A stretch of 16,115 bases of DNA from an uncultured Planctomycetota bacterium (lineage in GTDB: Bacteria > Planctomycetota > J058 > JACQDU01), in assembly GCA_964648345.1 (NCBI GenBank), contig CAZYLP010000081.1:1-16115 (forward strand). Reading direction: 5' to 3'. How positions within the stretch are numbered: the stretch's first letter is position 1; every line of letters begins with the position of its first letter. Made by a program: the position numbers and the translations under genes. The notes under the pieces were generated by a model that was not told the DNA's origin, did not search any database, and worked only from the letters and a program-made list of their open reading frames with translations. This document shows, in pieces, positions 3,167 to 10,862 of the stretch.

Positions 3167-5218
3167 GTGGTCGAGCGAGACAGGGACACACGCGAGCGGG
3201 ACATCCTCGTCGCGGGCAACGAGTACGCGTACGTCCAGGACCTCACGAAGGGCGACATCGTCCTCTACGTCGGTCCGACGAAGATCAGCCTCTCGAACAC
3301 GGAGCGGCTCGTCGTCCTGCAAGGAGGGCGCTTCGTCCCGGTGCGCAGCGAGGACGGCGGCGCGACGGGTGTGTCCGCGTTCGTCGCGGCGACGAGCTCG
3401 CAGTACATCGTCCTCGAGAACCCGCCCAAGGATCCGGCATCGCGTCCCGTGAAGGGGAGCAACTCGGCGGTCGAGCTCCTCACCGGCAAGAAGGTCGTCG
3501 TGCCCGGCCCGGCGACGTTCCCTCTCTGGCCGGGCCAGCGCGCGAGCGTCGTCGACGGGCACGAGCTCCGCGAGAACCAGTTCCTCTGGCTCCGCGTCTA
3601 CGACAAGATCGAAGGCGACCCGAGCCCGATCGGGACCGGCAAGATCGTCCGCGGCTCCGAGGTGAGCTTCTACATCCCGAAGACCGGCCTCGAGGTCGTC
3701 CCGGACCGGACGGGCTACGTCCGCAACGCCGTGACGCTCCGGCGCAACACGGGCCTCCACGTCCGCGCCGTCAGGGAGTTCACGGCGGGCCCCGACGACG
3801 ACGTGCCGGCGGGCAGCTACGCCGCGGGGCAGGGGATCTTCATCAAGGACCGCGAGGGCTTCTTCTTCCCGACCGGCGACCTCGAGGTCGTCGGCGAGGT
3901 CCGCACGATCCCGCTCAGCGACAAGGAAGGGATCTACGTCCGCGACATCGAGACCGGGCGGATCTTCACGGAGATCGGCCCCAAGAACTACCTCCCCGAT
4001 CCGACGCGCGTCGAGGTCGTCACGCGCACGCTCGACCCCGAGACCGCGAAGCTCTACGGGGTCGCCAACCACGAGAGGGGCAAGGCGGTGTCGGTCTACA
4101 TCCCGCCGAGCTTCGCCGTGCTGGTGACCGCGAAGAACAAGCGCGAGGTCGTGCGCGGCCCGCAGACGCGGATCCTCGCGTTCGACGAGGACCTCGAGGT
4201 CCTCAAGCTCTCGACCGGCAAGCCGAAGACGGACGAGACGCTCCTCTCGACGTGCTTCCTCCAGACCGACGGCAACAAGGTCTCGGACATCGTGCGCGTG
4301 AAGACGCGCGACCACGTCGAGCTGAACGTCACGCTCTCCTACCGCGTGTCCTTCATGCCTCGTGAAGGGCACCAGGGCGACGAGCGCTGGTTCAACGTCA
4401 AGAACTACGTCGCGCTCCTCTGCGATCACCTCGCTTCGATCGTGCGCGGAGCGGTCCGCGCGCACTCGATCGAGCAGTTCCACGCGCGGAGCACCGAGGC
4501 GATCAGGAACGCCATCCTCGGCGAGAAGCACGGCGACGAGCCGCGCCTCGGCCGGCGCTTCGAGGAGAACGGCCTCACGGTCTACGACGTCGAGGTCCTC
4601 GACGTGAAGATCCTCGACGCGGAGGTCGAGAAGCTCCTCTCCGACGCGCAGAAGGCCGGCATCGCCGCCGACGTGACGCGGCGTCAGGAGGAGCTCCGCC
4701 TCGGCGGCGAGAAGCTCAGGGAGCAGGTGACGGCGCAGATCTACGAGGCGCAGATCGTCACCCTCGCGCGGGCCGTCGAGCTCGAGAACGCGAAGTGGCG
4801 CGTCTCCGAGGCGAAGGCCCAGGCCGGCGTCGAGCTCGACAAGCTCGACCGTCTCGGCCGCGCGCAGAACGAGGCCGAGGCGCTCGAGATCTCGAGCGCC
4901 GCGAGGGCCGCGGCGTCCGGCCGCGAGAACGAGGTCGAGGGCAAGGCGCTCCAGGCTCGCGTCGCCGCGTTCCGCGAGCAGATGGGCGCCCTCGCGCCCG
5001 AGCTCGTCACGACGATCATGGTGCTCGGCGAAAAGCAGCTCGCCGGGGAGCTCACGAAGAACCTCTCGCCGCTCGCTATCCTCGGGGGAACGTGCGTGGG
5101 CGTGGTCGGGGAGCGGCTCCTCGGCGCCCTCCCGCTCGGAGTGACGGGGCCCGACGGCGCGGCCAAGGCCGTCTCGACGGCCGAGGCCCGGGCGAGCAAG
5201 GCGAACGGGAGGCGCTGA
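3167..5218 (+). CDS. Major vault protein (MVP) homologue, 683 aa: MVP repeat domains, shoulder (SPFH-like) domain and cap-helix coiled coil
   Basis: Alignment by eye to human MVP across the whole length. N-terminus: [21 protein letters not shown]...ERLV vs [22 protein letters not shown]...ERVL. Repeat 2: FPLWPGQ vs FPLYPGE. Shoulder: [28 protein letters not shown] vs [46 protein letters not shown]...[23 protein letters not shown] vs LSAGRPKRPHARRALCLL...[37 protein letters not shown] vs HKNSARIIRTAVFG. Cap-helix: [42 protein letters not shown]... Ala/Glu/Leu-rich coiled coil. GTG start with upstream ACAGGGG. Confidence 0.85.
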   Translation: [683 protein letters not shown]

Positions 5219-5791: not shown

Positions 5792-5845
5792 GCAAATTGT
5801 CGGTGGCATAGGTTAGGTTTGTTCCGCGTGAGGCGAAGGCGACCG

Positions 5846-6187
5846 ATGCCAGACGTGTGGGCGACTCAGTTTCTCGGAACTGTCTACGAAGACCTGTCGG
5901 GGAGGCTCATGGCCCAACGACAGTCCATCCCGAAGAACAGTCCGCCGACCCACCACGGCGGCGATCGTCTGTTCCGTCGCTTGGACTGCGCGGTGATCAA
6001 CTGGGCGGCGAAGGCGGGTCACTCCGGCGGTCGAGACCTCGCGTTCGACACCGTGCGGGGCGTGTTCGAGGAAGGGCTCCCGGCATCTCCTGGCGCGGCG
6101 GTCCGGCAGAAGTCGCATGTCCAGATCGCGATCAGGAGTCCCGCCTGCATCCTTGGGATCTTCCGGCCCACCGGCTACTCTCTTTAG
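5846..6187 (+). CDS. Hypothetical protein (about 113 aa) in a lower-GC segment
   Basis: Frame-2 ORF with a protein-like composition (MPDVWATQFLGTVYEDLSGRLMAQRQSIPK...). ATG at 5846 preceded by GAGGCGAAGG. The track ORF begins at a TTG at 5819. Third-position GC is lower than in the surrounding genes. No homology recognised. Confidence 0.35.
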   Translation: MPDVWATQFLGTVYEDLSGRLMAQRQSIPKNSPPTHHGGDRLFRRLDCAVINWAAKAGHSGGRDLAFDTVRGVFEEGLPASPGAAVRQKSHVQIAIRSPACILGIFRPTGYSL

Positions 6188-6430: not shown

Positions 6431-7102
6431 GTGGGGATTTCCTACGAGCACTGGTTCGTCGTGCGCGACCTCGACTGGCGCCCGGCCAAGAAACACGGAG
6501 AGGCGATCCATCGCCTCCTCGTCGATTGGGGCCTCGTCCGCGAGAAGCCGAAGCTGTTCGCGGTTGACGAGGGGCACGAGAGAGAAGTGCAAGGCGCCGC
6601 TGTCGTGCGGGACGGCGCCATCCCTGACGAACTCTGGATGCGCTACAGCCCCATGGTCGAAGGCGAGGCCGCCGAACGGGTCGTGGGACCGCTCGAGGAG
6701 GAGAGCGTCCCGGAGGCAAGGCCGTTCATCTGGGCCATCACCGTCGTCCTCGGTCGCGACTACAAGATCATCGACGCTCCGGACTTCGGACCGGTCTCCA
6801 CATCTCTCGTGGGAGGGCGGAGACCGACGCACGCGGTCGGCGCGATCGACGCCGTCGCCGCGACGTGGGATCAGCCGCCGCCTCCCACCGAGGTCGCATT
6901 CTCCGATCCCATGACGGGTGATCCCCGCGAAGTGCCCGACGGGTTCGTCGGGCTCATGAGGTCGGGAGTCATCTTCGACTGCGACAGGGCTCGCCCCGAG
7001 TTCCCACGGAGTTCCGATTCCCGGCTTCCGAACCGCGAGTTCGTCCGAGCGCTCGAGGGTGCCCTCGAGACCGGGGTTATCGAGATCGGCCGGTACGTCT
7101 GA
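6431..7102 (+). CDS. Hypothetical protein (223 aa)
   Basis: Plus-strand codon usage is typical of the host (ttc, gac, gag, ctc, atc, high GC3), whereas the antisense ORF 6206-6832 is Arg/Pro-rich. GTG start at 6431. No recognisable motif (MGISYEHWFVVRDLDWRPAKKHGEAIHRLLVDWGLV...). Confidence 0.55.
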   Translation: MGISYEHWFVVRDLDWRPAKKHGEAIHRLLVDWGLVREKPKLFAVDEGHEREVQGAAVVRDGAIPDELWMRYSPMVEGEAAERVVGPLEEESVPEARPFIWAITVVLGRDYKIIDAPDFGPVSTSLVGGRRPTHAVGAIDAVAATWDQPPPPTEVAFSDPMTGDPREVPDGFVGLMRSGVIFDCDRARPEFPRSSDSRLPNREFVRALEGALETGVIEIGRYV

Positions 7103-7112
7103 CGACGACGCG

Positions 7113-7547
7113 CTACTCGATCTCTTCGAAGCGGTGAGTGCCGGCGAGTATCGCGTGCACTACGGGCGCCCACGCGACCTCGACCCACTCGAGGTCGTTG
7201 AACGGAGGCACCCGCTCGTTCGACCACTTCGCCTGACCCAGGAAGTACTTCATGGACGGGGCTGCCAGGTGATTGCTCGTGTGAACGATCACGGGGCAAG
7301 TCGGAGTCCGACCGGTCAGGAAGAGAACGACATCGGTTCCTGACCCGGGATCGTCGCCTTTCTCCTTGGCGACGAGGTCGTGATCGAGGGAGATGAGAAC
7401 ACACTCGCCGAGGTGTTCCTCGAGCCACGCGATCATGTCGTGCGCTCGGGGGAAGACGTGGACGCTCAGCGCTCCTTCTTGCGCGAGCTGTCGGAGCATT
7501 GCATCGCGACGTCCTTCGTCGTCCTCCAGGATCGCGATCGCGCGCAC
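7113..7547 (-). CDS. Stand-alone receiver (REC, CheY-like) domain protein, 144 aa
   Basis: Receiver hallmarks in order: acidic pair after beta1 (RAIAILEDDEGRRD), phospho-acceptor-like Asp at the end of beta3 (CVLISLDHDL), conserved Thr/Ser (VIVHTSNH) and Lys (SMKYFLGQAKW). GTG start at 7547 is chosen to include the DD pair; an ATG at 7500 would truncate it. The rest of track ORF 7113-8393 is antisense to the methyltransferase gene and is rejected. Confidence 0.55.
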   Translation of the reverse strand: MRAIAILEDDEGRRDAMLRQLAQEGALSVHVFPRAHDMIAWLEEHLGECVLISLDHDLVAKEKGDDPGSGTDVVLFLTGRTPTCPVIVHTSNHLAAPSMKYFLGQAKWSNERVPPFNDLEWVEVAWAPVVHAILAGTHRFEEIE

Positions 7548-7646
7548 ATCGCACGTTAGCTGCGTACCCCGATGTGCGACCAGGTGGTACCACGACACGG
7601 CCCGGCTGTGATACGGTCGCGCCGAACGCTCGCAGGGGGAGAGACC

Positions 7647-8459
7647 ATGAATCCGAACAAGGCGCTTTGGGAGAAGGGCGACTTCACCGAGATCGCCTCT
7701 TTCATGCGGCAGTCGGGCGAAGCCGTCGGCAACTCGCTCGGAGTCACGAACACGATGCGCGTCCTCGACCTCGGCTGCGGCGACGGCACGACCGCGGTCC
7801 CGATCGCGAGGCTCGGTGCGGAGGTCGTCGGGATCGACATCGCCCGGAACCTCGTCGAGGCCGGCAACAAGCGCGCCGCCGCGTTCGGGCTCGGCCGCCT
7901 CAGGTTCCAGGAGGGCGACGCCTGCAAGCTCGAGGGCGTGCCGGACCGCTCGTTCGACCTCACGCTCTCCGTGTTCGGGGCCATGTTCGCGCCCAGGCCG
8001 TTCGACGTGGCGAAGGAGATGGTCCGCGTCACGAAGCCGGGCGGCCGGATCGTCATGGGCAACTGGATCCCTGGAGACCCGACCTTCGTCGCGCAGCTTC
8101 TGAAGATCAGCTCGGCGTTCACGCCGCCGCCGCCCGAAGGGTTCGTGAGCCCTATGACGTGGGGCGTGGACACGAACATCTACGAGCGCTTCGGGGCTGC
8201 CGGCGTGCCCCAGCAGAAGATCACGCTCGCGCGGGAGACGTTCACCTTCATCTCCCCCGACAAGAGCCCGGAGCAGGTCGTCGAGTCGTTCCGCAAGTTC
8301 TACGGGCCGACGATGAACGCCTACGAGGCCGTCGAGAAGAACGGGAAGACGGACGAGCTCCACGCGCAGGTCGTCGATCTCGCGAGGTCGCACAACAAGG
8401 CGACGGGCGGCGGAACGTCGATCCCGGCGACGTTCCTGCGAGTCACGGTCTCGGTGTGA
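7647..8459 (+). CDS. Class I SAM-dependent methyltransferase (Methyltransf_11/25-like), 270 aa
   Basis: Motif I VLDLGCGDGTTAVPIARLGAEVVGIDIA, acidic post-I residue, and motif II/III region RLRFQEGDA...DLTLSVFGAMF...KPGGRIVMGNW. Strong RBS GGGGGAGAG 5 nt before the ATG at 7647. The track start at 7572 adds 25 improbable residues. Confidence 0.8.
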   Translation: MNPNKALWEKGDFTEIASFMRQSGEAVGNSLGVTNTMRVLDLGCGDGTTAVPIARLGAEVVGIDIARNLVEAGNKRAAAFGLGRLRFQEGDACKLEGVPDRSFDLTLSVFGAMFAPRPFDVAKEMVRVTKPGGRIVMGNWIPGDPTFVAQLLKISSAFTPPPPEGFVSPMTWGVDTNIYERFGAAGVPQQKITLARETFTFISPDKSPEQVVESFRKFYGPTMNAYEAVEKNGKTDELHAQVVDLARSHNKATGGGTSIPATFLRVTVSV

Positions 8460-8847
8460 CGCCCGGCCAGACCCGCCGCCCGTGCACGAAGACGGCGGCG
8501 ACGGTCTCGGGCTCGAAGGTCATGTGGAACCCTCGCTCGGGCGAGAGGAACTCCTCGGGCAAGAGGTCCTGCACGCGCCGGAACGAGAGGAGGTCGTCCT
8601 CGATCCCGACGAACTTCATACCCCCGAAGCCGACGCGCGCGGAGCCTCCCTCGTCGTCGCAGAAGACGACCTGATCCGTCGGGACGGGCACGCCGCGGCC
8701 ACCCGGGAAGTGGACGAAGGTCCCCGGCGGACCGTTCTGGACGATCGGGAGGCTCTTCGCGACGAGCTTGCCGCGCGTGATCCGGCTACCCTCGAGGAAC
8801 TCGACGAGCACGGGGATCTTCAAGACATCGACGGGATCAGAGTTCAT
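8443..8847 (-). CDS. Hypothetical protein (about 134 aa)
   Basis: ORF with protein-like composition (MNSDPVDVLKIPVLVEFLEGSRITRGKLVAKSLPIVQNGPPGTFVHFPGG...). ATG at 8847 is preferred over the track start at 8982, which lies inside the AT-rich palindromic intergenic region. The 3' end overlaps the convergent methyltransferase gene by 17 nt. No family recognised; weak PilZ-like impression only. Confidence 0.4.
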   Translation of the reverse strand: MNSDPVDVLKIPVLVEFLEGSRITRGKLVAKSLPIVQNGPPGTFVHFPGGRGVPVPTDQVVFCDDEGGSARVGFGGMKFVGIEDDLLSFRRVQDLLPEEFLSPERGFHMTFEPETVAAVFVHGRRVWPGVTPRP

Positions 8848-9077
8848 GGCCAACGAGACGGCAAGCCTAGCAGGTCTCGCGATGCTCTGACGACATGACG
8901 ACGGCTCGTCGACCCGCGGGCGGAACGGGATCAGCGCCGTAAACTTAAGATTACATTGCAATGCATTGCCTATGTATGACATAGGCCATTTTAGACGAGC
9001 ATCTTTACACCAGGATCGCCGTTTGATCCCGCCGGGATCGTCCGTGACCCGGACTCGGAAAGGAAGGCTGACGCCTC
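8848..9077. promoter_or_regulatory. AT-rich (about 45-50% GC against about 70% background) divergent promoter region containing three palindromes
   Basis: Perfect palindromes read directly from the sequence: CATTGCAATG (8954-8963, with overlapping ATGCAT and a flanking CATTGC direct repeat), GCCTATGT-atg-ACATAGGC (8968-8986), and GATCCCG-c-CGGGATC (9025-9039). An AGGAAGG RBS lies before the ATG at 9078. Confidence 0.45.
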
Positions 9078-9641
9078 ATGGACCTCTCTCTGTACGGACA
9101 GCCGGACGACGGCCCCTTCGACGGCCCGCTCGCGGCCAACTGCGCCGTGATCGGGTTGATCGTGATGATGCTCGTCGGCCTGGGCTTCGTCTCCTACCCG
9201 GTCGGGCTCACGCTCGCGTTCATCTTCCTGTGGGCGTTCATCGCCGGACTCATCGTCGGCGCCGTCGCCTACCTCCTCCTGCGGCGACTCCGTCAGGCCG
9301 ACAGGTCGCGGCAGCCCTCGAGCAGGATCTTCGACCCCTCGCTTCGCGCCGGCCTCGTGGCCGCGGCGACGAGCGTCGCGGCGCTCGGCATCGTCGATCC
9401 GTCTCTCGTGGCGCGCTCGACCCCGTACGCAGCCGCGCGCGAGGGAGGTCGCGCCTTCAGCGTCTCGATCCGTTCACCGCGCGCGAAGACCACGACTCCC
9501 GCCATCGCGGGAGAGGACGTCGAGCGAGCCGTCCGCGAAGCGACCGCGGCAGGCAGCACGCCGCCGGCCGAGCCTCCGCGCCCTCACCGCGAGGCCGCGG
9601 AGCCGACCTCGACCGGGTTCCTGGGCGCGCTGGGGCGCTGA
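9078..9641 (+). CDS. Small membrane protein (two predicted TM helices) with a low-complexity tail ending TSTGFLGALGR
   Basis: Hydrophobic stretches AVIGLIVMMLVGLGFVSYPVGLTLAFIFLWAFIAGLIVGAVAYLLL followed by a basic RRLRQADR. ATG at 9078 with upstream AGGAAGG. The stop at 9639-9641 is 3 nt before the next gene's GTG, implying translational coupling. Confidence 0.55.
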   Translation: MDLSLYGQPDDGPFDGPLAANCAVIGLIVMMLVGLGFVSYPVGLTLAFIFLWAFIAGLIVGAVAYLLLRRLRQADRSRQPSSRIFDPSLRAGLVAAATSVAALGIVDPSLVARSTPYAAAREGGRAFSVSIRSPRAKTTTPAIAGEDVERAVREATAAGSTPPAEPPRPHREAAEPTSTGFLGALGR

Positions 9642-9644
9642 GCC

Positions 9645-10862
9645 GTGGGACCGCTCGAATCGATCGGCGAGTGGATCTCGGAGAACAGGAACGCGATCGT
9701 CGCGACCACCGCGGGCCTCGTCGTCGGCACCGGGGTCACGATCGCCCTCCTCGCGACGGCTCCCGTGAGCATGCCCGCGCTCCTCGCCGTCGGAGGAGCG
9801 GTCGCGGCGGGCGCTTTCATCGGGACGGCGTTCACGTACGTCGCGCTGAGCGCGTTCGACGGCGCCGACCTCCAGGACCGGAGCATCGTCCTCAGGGCGA
9901 CGGCTCACGCGACGGTGGCCGCGGGTCTGAGCTTCCTGACCGTCGGCGCGCTCGGCCCCGCCGGCGGAGTGGCGACGGGCCCCGCCGGCGTCGCGCTCGG
10001 CGAGTCCTCGCTCGCGACGATCGCCGCCCAGGCGCCCACGCGGTTCGTCGTGGGCGCCGGCGCGGCGGGCGCGCAGCAGCTCGCGTCGAACCTGATCGAG
10101 GGCCGGCCCTCCGAGGAAGGGATGCCGACGGCACTCCTCCTCGGCGGGACGCTGACCACCGTCGCCACGACCGCGGGAGACCTCCACCAGGGCGTCTTCG
10201 CCCCTGACCCCATCGCAGACGCTCGGCCCGTGCTCCGCCACTCGTCGTCTCTCGAGCAGGACCTCGCTTACTACCGCGCCCAGGGTTGGAGGATCCGCTA
10301 CGGCGAGCCAGGACGCGGCACGTTCATGACCGACCCCGCGCCCGGCGTGCCAGGAGAGATCGTGATCGACCCACTGCGGCGTCCCTCTCCGACCTCGCTC
10401 ACGAACGGGCTCGCACACGAGGTCGGCCATGCGAACGCCGGCGCCCCTCCGACGTACGGTCCGAGCGCCACGATCGCGACGCGAGAGGAGTTCGCACGGA
10501 TCAACGTGCTCCAGCAGCTCGACGGCGAGGGGATCGCCGTCCTCAACGAGGCGACCGTGCGGAGCGAGATCCTCGCGGCCGGGGGACCCGACATCGGTGG
10601 GAGTCCTGCGATCCCGAGGTACGCCGACATCCTGAACGATCCCTCGATCGGCGCGTGGGAGCAGGCCCGGCGGTTGGGCAACAACTACAGGTACGAGACG
10701 CCGAGCACCAACCCAGCCGTCAACTACGGCCGCTACTGGAGCGCCTACTACGAGGACTGGTGGGACAGGGTCATGGGCTCGGGTCCGCTCACGGTCACCA
10801 AGGGGACGGCGACGACCGCGCCGGCGACGTCTCCCGGGATCCTCGGCGCGATCGGACGCTGA
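9645..10862 (+). CDS. Membrane-anchored protein with Gly/Ala-rich hydrophobic N-terminal region and a C-terminal HExxH...E (gluzincin-like) putative metallopeptidase domain; ends TSPGILGAIGR
   Basis: N-terminal about 180 aa of glycine-zipper-like hydrophobic helices (GLVVGTGVTIALLATAP..., LLAVGGAVAAGAFIGTAFTYVALSAF...). Motif NGLAHEVGHANAG followed about 20 residues later by REEFAR, the HExxH + E zincin arrangement. Aromatic-rich C-terminal segment NYGRYWSAYYEDWWDRV. Plus-strand codon usage is good. The antisense ORFs 9474-11198 and 9584-9886 are rejected. Confidence 0.6.
   Translation: MGPLESIGEWISENRNAIVATTAGLVVGTGVTIALLATAPVSMPALLAVGGAVAAGAFIGTAFTYVALSAFDGADLQDRSIVLRATAHATVAAGLSFLTVGALGPAGGVATGPAGVALGESSLATIAAQAPTRFVVGAGAAGAQQLASNLIEGRPSEEGMPTALLLGGTLTTVATTAGDLHQGVFAPDPIADARPVLRHSSSLEQDLAYYRAQGWRIRYGEPGRGTFMTDPAPGVPGEIVIDPLRRPSPTSLTNGLAHEVGHANAGAPPTYGPSATIATREEFARINVLQQLDGEGIAVLNEATVRSEILAAGGPDIGGSPAIPRYADILNDPSIGAWEQARRLGNNYRYETPSTNPAVNYGRYWSAYYEDWWDRVMGSGPLTVTKGTATTAPATSPGILGAIGR

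Follow-up and report, generated by a model that had tools for sequence, protein, structure and literature searches.

What does a membrane-anchored protein with a metallopeptidase motif do when no machinery to send it anywhere is evident in the 16 kb around its gene? The question is raised by P0001, a gene at positions 9645 to 10862 of a 16,115-bp contig from an uncultured Planctomycetota bacterium (the whole contig is the window in what follows), whose product joins hydrophobic N-terminal helices to an HExxH motif and for which a sequence-only reading had proposed a toxin, effector or bacteriocin-like role, with a small partner protein encoded just upstream. We report that the C-terminal domain of P0001 very probably belongs to a zincin family that occurs at the C-termini of diverse predicted toxins. 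On balance, and with somewhat better than even confidence, we favour the explanation that P0001 is a stand-alone, membrane-anchored member of this widespread family of zinc-metallopeptidase toxins, partnered by P0002, the product of the upstream gene. The gene in question is the following:

9645 to 10862, + strand: target gene P0001, encoding 405 amino acids, with a GTG start and its stop codon at 10860-10862.

The GC content of P0001 at the three codon positions (0.68/0.58/0.90) follows the pattern of genuine genes in this contig of ~70% GC, and the open reading frames (ORFs) that overlap it in other frames lack that signature. Its GTG start lies 3 nt past the stop codon of the upstream gene and in the same frame (junction TGA-GCC-GTG), a choice of start that is backed by the alignment of residues 3-18 to the N-terminus of a homologue, P0072. 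The protein as a whole had no meaningful match in Pfam, NCBIfam, PADLOC, PHROGs or the PDB sequences, and a word-indexed homologue search with its full length returned only P0001 itself. The housekeeping models for HtpX (M48), RseP (M50) and FtsH (M41) in Pfam and NCBIfam did not match either, in agreement with the sequence-only reading, which had set P0001 apart from these three proteases.

The assignment to a toxin family is carried by the C-terminal domain, with these features:

10200 to 10784, + strand: zincin-fold metallopeptidase toxin domain, residues 186-380.
10416 to 10430, + strand: HEVGH, with H258, E259 and H262 as predicted zinc ligands and catalytic base; LAHEVGHA is residues 256-263.
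10527 to 10529, + strand: E295, predicted third zinc ligand, in the motif L-D-G-E-G-I-A.
10725 to 10727, + strand: Y361, near-invariant, in the Tyr/Trp-rich last helix; candidate transition-state stabiliser.

Of 1.84 billion cluster representatives searched exhaustively by phmmer with residues 186-405, 394 matched with E ≤ 1e-3, and 134 of these reached E ≤ 1e-10. The best match other than P0001 itself had E = 2.6e-24 and 40% identity, and the 133 other representatives from this value to 1e-10 span residues ~190-380. When residue conservation was counted over the aligned sequences of the 150 best homologues out of the 394, H258, E259, H262 and E295 proved invariant (150/150), Y361 was kept in 148 of 149 sequences (and is invariant in alignment A6), and many Gly, Ser and Glu positions were near-invariant. 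Because P0001 retains all of the invariant residues and nearly all of the near-invariant ones, it looks catalytically competent. The HExxH motif, earlier read as being of the gluzincin type, is therefore genuine and not a chance match, being present in all 150 homologues and within a zincin fold. As to the downstream Glu, the invariant residue lies 33 positions past H262 and within the motif L-x-[DG]-E-G-x-A; the Glu first pointed to, about 20 residues past the HExxH, is present as E281/E282 (19-20 positions past it) but varies among the homologues, the predicted ligand being E295.

AlphaFold2 modelled the domain from the homologue alignment with a predicted local distance difference test score (pLDDT) of 88.4 and a predicted template modelling score (pTM) of 0.85. 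The model has three short strands, one helix with the HExxH, a long one bearing E295 and a C-terminal Tyr-rich one; in a model of the full-length protein, HEVGH falls on helix 249-265 and E295 on the long helix 280-311. The Tyr/Trp-rich segment of the original description is there as well, as NYGRYWSAYYEDWWDRV at residues 360-376, and by analogy with M1-type gluzincins its Y361 is a candidate for stabilising the transition state. The conserved residues together with this confident model indicate that the C-terminal domain is a zincin whose active site follows the gluzincin arrangement. No solved structure is close to it, a Foldseek search against the PDB having given no significant structural match, and it probably binds zinc and is catalytically active. 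A word-indexed search retrieved at least six proteins with a 97-sequence profile of the domain, and a search for related loci with the LAHEVGHA pattern retrieved 10 genome and 20 metagenome loci, none of these loci with an architecture like that of the target.

In most of the 150 homologues the zincin domain ends ~6 residues or fewer from the C-terminus, and the parts that precede it range from none to more than 1400 amino acids. A Pfam scan of the 114 full-length homologues identified these carriers as parts of VgrG (Phage_GPD in 10, Phage_base_V in 11 and Gp5_trimer_C in 14), PAAR (10), Tox-PAAR-like (2), RHS (2) and WXG100 (13), with eCIS_core, DUF4280 and prePAAR once each, and NCBIfam agreed independently (VgrG 13, WXG100 13, PAAR 8, RHS core 3). 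Three homologues have the order prePAAR, transmembrane domain (TMD), PAAR, TMD and zincin, and in the Rhs forms P0060 and P0096 (L016) a DPxGL cleavage motif is followed by a stretch rich in transmembrane (TM) segments and then by the zincin; signal-peptide and lipoprotein forms were also found. One and the same C-terminal domain on varied trafficking modules is a mark of polymorphic toxins in the sense of Zhang et al. (2012), and it was found at the level of the family, not in P0001. Judged by these architectures, the family fits the pattern of a C-terminal module of polymorphic toxins. Hence the likeness to polymorphic toxins that had been suggested for P0001 holds for its domain family, with its fusions to VgrG, PAAR, Rhs and WXG100, but not for P0001 itself, which has neither a trafficking domain nor a canonical immunity gene.

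The family also has a conserved neighbour. In 19 fetched loci a small gene adjoins the zincin gene and encodes a weakly conserved protein of ~150 amino acids without a Pfam match. It lies downstream of the zincin gene in L001, L002, L004, L014 and L015 and upstream in L009; L001 has a second copy further along, and the pair in L014, from Burkholderia stagnalis, is beside a prePAAR-Rhs gene. A hidden Markov model (HMM) built from seven of these proteins (two from L001, and one each from L002, L004, L009, L014 and L015) found same-strand matches in 13 further loci outside its training set, with E values of 1e-40 to 1e-7; in nearly all cases the matching gene directly follows the zincin gene (L034 has one copy upstream and one downstream). 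The neighbour genes lie at:

L001, 4578 to 5114 and 6386 to 6961; L014, 6533 to 7051; L004, 4571 to 5083; L015, 6731 to 7174: neighbour genes.
13 loci within L017-L034: neighbour genes of metagenome loci, some of these loci with duplicated copies.

Most of the neighbour proteins start with a signal peptide or a lipobox; a Tat-like RREFLK occurs in one of them, and a few are without an export signal. Because the neighbours are adjacent to the zincin genes and mostly have signal sequences, the two together probably constitute a toxin-immunity family that acts mostly in the periplasm or cell envelope.

Two further forms of the zincin proteins were observed. P0052, P0059 and the protein encoded at 1545-2594 of L019 have a Flp/TadE-like prepilin leader (e.g. 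RGVTTAEYIVLAAVLVLG) ahead of the zincin domain, which hints at delivery or display via a Tad-type pilus system. In the Burkholderia/Paraburkholderia loci L003, L006, L008, L010 and L028 the zincin is internal to giant ORFs rather than C-terminal, with >2400-2800 codons without a stop inside the locus, and the fetched stretches of these five loci contain no immunity-family gene.

Among known systems, the domain family of P0001 would by analogy work most closely like the C-terminal effector of VgrG2b, from the H2 type VI secretion system (T6SS) of P. aeruginosa. The VgrG2b metallopeptidase is toxic only in the periplasm, its toxicity needs the catalytic Glu and is neutralised by a small, adjacently encoded immunity protein, PA0261, and no substrate of it is known (PMC6899460). 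As in VgrG2b, a zincin toxin domain with HExxH and a downstream Glu is found on the C-terminus of the T6SS spike in many of the relatives. Unlike in VgrG2b, in which 44 residues separate the second His from the Glu, this spacing is 33 residues in the P0001 family, and P0001 itself has no VgrG fusion and no such immunity gene. VgrG2b moreover belongs to a different sequence family, DUF4157/eCIS_core (PF13699), to which P0001 has no match; the single one of the 114 homologues that does match PF13699 is not shown to do so on the zincin domain.

Zincins at the C-termini of toxins were catalogued by Zhang et al. (2012), who described Tox-MPTase1-5, Tox-HopH1 and ALF-MPTase in RHS, T6SS and type VII secretion system (T7SS, WXG) toxins, spread over many phyla, planctomycetes included, and listed no immunity protein for them (PMC3482391). 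P0001's family resembles these in being a small HExxH domain at the C-termini of RHS, T6SS and T7SS toxins but differs in having a conserved immunity-like neighbour. The Pfam metallopeptidase-toxin models of the Tox-MPTase and HopH1/Peptidase_M91 types, in a comparison that covered those other than Tox-MPTase1, did not match P0001 and were not among the commonest matches of its homologues, the sole trace of Peptidase_M91 being at E = 0.11 in one homologue. The nearest curated model is PF20573 (DUF6782, a putative metallopeptidase), with weak matches in 23 of the 114 homologues (best E 1.4e-07) and none to P0001 even at E ≤ 10. Its gathering score of 27 bits was passed by P0110 (30.1 bits); P0153 fell short with 26.1 bits, and the rest of the homologues that were scanned one by one scored lower still or had no match. 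Most of these matches are partial and do not reach the threshold, which makes the zincin family a divergent sister or an extension of DUF6782 at most. No paper on DUF6782 or on the zincin family was found in the literature library searched. The P0001 domain is of a familiar class, in an uncharacterised family with an equally uncharacterised immunity partner.

The part of P0001 that precedes the zincin domain consists of:

9687 to 9947, + strand: N-terminal hydrophobic helices, membrane anchor or insertion region, residues 15-38, 43-69 and 76-101.
9948 to 10199, + strand: Gly/Ala-rich low-confidence linker, residues 102-185, containing the NLIEGRP motif.

The hydrophobic segments fall within residues 18-71, with Kyte-Doolittle peaks of 1.7-2.0, and the full-length AlphaFold2 model has helices at residues 2-13, 15-38, 43-69 and 76-101, the pLDDT of the N-terminal helices being 60-74. 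Residues ~100-183 are Gly/Ala-rich and have a pLDDT below 50, with ~80 disordered residues. The ~180 amino acids of Gly/Ala-rich hydrophobic helices of the sequence-only reading are thus helical up to residue 101, but the stretch from 100 to 183 is of low confidence and not clearly so. The N-terminal 185 residues match no known domain, and no relationship to known trafficking or pore-forming domains is detectable in them. No result suggests that P0001 forms pores.

When the N-terminus of P0001 was compared with those of its relatives, using 300 shuffles as the background, the score with P0072 stood out (z = 8.2, reached by 0/300 shuffles), followed by those with P0008 (z = 3.4, 2/300), P0096 (z = 3.2, 1/300) and P0025 (z = 2.6, 4/300). 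An NLIEG[RK]P-like motif is common to P0001, P0072, P0008 and P0025, and the N-terminal domain as such is clearly shared only with P0072, which is ~31% identical overall to P0001 and its only clear full-length homologue. A metagenome scan with N-terminal patterns gave no relatives, and a profile search with a four-sequence N-terminal alignment gave no match, the query itself included, probably owing to composition filtering. A resemblance to the TM segments of prePAAR proteins or of the Rhs C-terminal form P0060 was also considered and discarded, as the similarity does not exceed what composition gives (z of -0.1 to 1.8, with 16-149 of 300 shuffles reaching the score).

T6SS effectors of the prePAAR class, such as those of the Tse6 type, reportedly have N-terminal transmembrane domains. 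P0001 is like them in having Gly/Ala-rich TM helices ahead of a toxin domain, and unlike them in its N-terminus, MGPLESIGEWISENRN, which has no AARxxDxxxH motif, in the lack of a PAAR domain, and in that no Eag (DUF1795) chaperone gene is present in the window. Without a carrier, anchored in the membrane, bearing a C-terminal tail and without a canonical immunity gene, P0001 is an unusual form.

The tail connects P0001 to the gene upstream of it, and the features concerned are:

9078 to 9641, + strand: upstream gene P0002, 187 amino acids, coding-like, with a GC content at third codon positions (GC3) of 0.89; candidate partner or immunity protein.
9606 to 9638, + strand: C-terminal tail of P0002, TSTGFLGALGR, followed by TGA at 9639-9641.
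10785 to 10859, + strand: C-terminal extension of P0001, a Thr/Ala/Pro-rich linker and then the tail TSPGILGAIGR (10827-10859).

P0002 is, as first described, a two-TM protein whose C-terminal tail is shared with P0001. Its two strong hydrophobic TM helices lie in residues ~20-67, an Arg-rich stretch follows the second of them, residues 88-111 are hydrophobic as well, though more weakly, and a linker rich in Pro, Ala and Glu is also present. The Arg cluster suggests that the C-terminal part of P0002 is cytoplasmic, unless segment 88-111 spans the membrane too. P0002 forms a singleton cluster in the protein collection and has no family match in Pfam, NCBIfam, PADLOC or PHROGs, nor a meaningful one among the PDB sequences. 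Eight of the 11 amino acids of the two tails are identical, which is the top score of 7750 ORF-tail pairs (next best, 6), and at the DNA level 30 of 39 nt are identical, the best match of this 39-mer in the window on both strands (next, 25). The match between the tails is not due to chance, and several of the differences are synonymous; therefore it is the peptide that has been kept rather than the DNA. The 25-residue extension of P0001 is lacking in most homologues and is disordered in both AlphaFold2 models. P0072 ends in a tail of the same kind, ...SSSGGFVGSLR, behind a similar Pro/Ala/Ser-rich linker, and in the window and all 36 fetched loci together no protein other than P0001, P0002 and P0072 matches the pattern G-phi-phi-G-x-phi-(G)-R-COOH.

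That the tail is a device peculiar to the membrane-anchored subfamily, serving either as a pseudo-substrate plug or as a sorting signal for both proteins, is a speculation that we rate as quite unlikely. As a plug, it may fold into the peptidase cleft, with P0002 offering the same tail in trans, which would be immunity by mimicry; as a sorting signal, it may be a new C-terminal address that routes P0001 and P0002 to one machine. Proabylysin is kept latent by its own C-terminal segment, which occupies the active-site cleft, and such self-plugging is a possible model, by analogy, for the flexible C-terminal tail of P0001. The minigluzincins proabylysin and projannalysin (PDB 4jiu, 4jix) have no sequence relationship to P0001.

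If P0001 is a stand-alone membrane-anchored toxin, as we favour, its mode of action would be as follows. Members of the zincin family would cleave an envelope or periplasmic target in competitor cells, killing or inhibiting them, and the exported neighbour in the relatives would be the immunity protein. In P0001, the two to three N-terminal TM helices and the disordered Gly/Ala linker would anchor the protein in, or insert it into, a membrane; the co-transcribed P0002 would be the most likely protective or handling partner, taking the place of the canonical immunity gene; and the tail that both proteins bear would serve as a recognition element for the P0001-P0002 partnership or for one shared machine.

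Several of our results weigh against this explanation. Pfam, NCBIfam, PADLOC and PHROGs recognise no trafficking domain in P0001, a prePAAR motif is absent from it, and the few charged residues near its helices make the charge distribution uninformative for topology. The 16-kb window contains no secretion-system, Rhs, PAAR, Eag, WXG or chaperone gene, and no member of the immunity family was found anywhere in it by tblastn or with the HMM. P0002 was rejected as such a member, with an hhalign probability of 0.2%, so the role as immunity or chaperone-like partner that had been proposed for it would follow only from its tight linkage to P0001 and the shared tail, and not from kinship with the immunity protein of the family. 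Lastly, P0072 is encoded between housekeeping genes, those for a cytochrome bd oxidase and PPDK, and its locus has no counterpart of P0002 upstream.

Some of these points are what would be expected if P0001 were instead a cell-autonomous membrane zincin that processes envelope proteins of its own cell, with P0002 as regulator or substrate and the tail as a motif for recognition or cleavage; in evolution, the toxin forms would then have branched off from such enzymes, or such enzymes from them. We judge this alternative unlikely, though it deserves to be taken seriously. It would account for the lack of both a delivery system and a canonical immunity gene near P0001, for the retention of the N-terminal domain and tail by P0072 in an unrelated, housekeeping neighbourhood, and for the ordinary, host-like codon statistics of P0001. 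It accords poorly with the make-up of the family, in which only ~4 of 150 representatives have such an N-terminus, versus dozens on VgrG, PAAR, Rhs and WXG100 carriers; with the sparse distribution of these proteins, those of the window that were looked up being singletons at 90% identity and the word-indexed search finding nothing else; and with the lack of a match to any housekeeping peptidase family.

The missing carrier and immunity gene would also be explained if P0001 were a displaced or decaying toxin cassette, an orphan tip of the Rhs C-terminal kind that has lost both and is no longer used, and the Rhs proteins P0060 and P0096 (L016) do have a TM-rich segment between DPxGL and the zincin. 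We nevertheless consider this improbable: the 405-codon ORF is intact, with a GC3 of 0.90 and all invariant residues kept; it has its own start codon and is tightly linked to P0002; P0072 has the same stand-alone architecture with an equivalent start; and the similarity of P0001 to the TM segment of the P0060 Rhs C-terminus is only compositional (z = 0.1). More improbable still is that P0001 and P0002 are one gene split by an in-frame stop, either read through to give a single protein of 590 amino acids or broken by a nonsense mutation or an assembly error, since the frame shared by the ORFs starting at 9078 and 9645, separated only by one stop and one codon (TGA-GCC), is expected by chance in one case out of three, the same tail stands right before TGA in both ORFs, as fits two complete proteins, and P0072 stands alone and starts at the equivalent region.

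The sequence 5' of the two-gene unit has the following features:

8940 to 9077, no strand assigned: AT-rich divergent intergenic region 5' of the two-gene unit, as read from the sequence.
8958 to 8969: perfect palindrome GCAATGCATTGC, in the intergenic region.
8969 to 8985: perfect palindrome CCTATGT-ATG-ACATAGG, overlapping the start of the ORF at 8443-8982 (- strand).
9057 to 9067: GGAAAGGAAGG, resembling a ribosome-binding site, ahead of P0002.

The two-gene unit may have its promoter or operator in the region from 8940 to 9077, which contains no match to the sigma-70 consensus and no informative promoter or terminator consensus. No meaningful DNA repeats were found in the window.

The other genes of the window encode a cytochrome c peroxidase/propeller protein, AhpC-like, MVP-shoulder/SPFH and DUF2505 proteins, a methyltransferase, HAD/LNS2-like and HEAT/Nfu_N proteins, and a Ser/Thr kinase with TPR repeats. 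A weak tblastn match to the immunity family inside the AhpC-like gene was dismissed, since hhalign did not confirm it. At 7113-7571 (- strand) there is a small receiver-domain gene (Pfam cREC_REC, cyclic-phosphate processing receiver, E = 7.5e-9), which is the 3' end of a listed ORF of 426 amino acids; only that part is coding-like, the remainder being antisense to the genuine methyltransferase gene at 7572-8459 (+ strand). The protein encoded at 3167-5218 (+ strand) has MVP shoulder and repeat domains and a weak, sub-threshold match to SPFH/Band 7, and its 90%-identity cluster includes a protein of a Planctomycetota metagenome-assembled genome (MEZ0227854.1). Pfam, NCBIfam, PADLOC and PHROGs gave no match for the ORFs at 8443-8982 (- strand), 5819-6187 (+ strand) and 6431-7102 (+ strand), all three of them coding-like; in the protein collection, the one at 6431-7102 forms a cluster of its own.

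Few antibacterial effectors are as poorly understood as metallopeptidase toxins, and the zincin family described here, with its mostly exported or lipoprotein neighbour, provides a defined putative toxin-immunity pair with a probable target in the envelope, across T6SS, T7SS, Rhs and other carriers and several phyla. Were the tail to act as a plug or a sorting signal, P0001 would exemplify a zincin toxin that is put to use with none of the known secretion carriers. More generally, P0001 could show how such a toxin is handled and deployed without a dedicated secretion apparatus, or else reveal cell-autonomous relatives of a toxin family.

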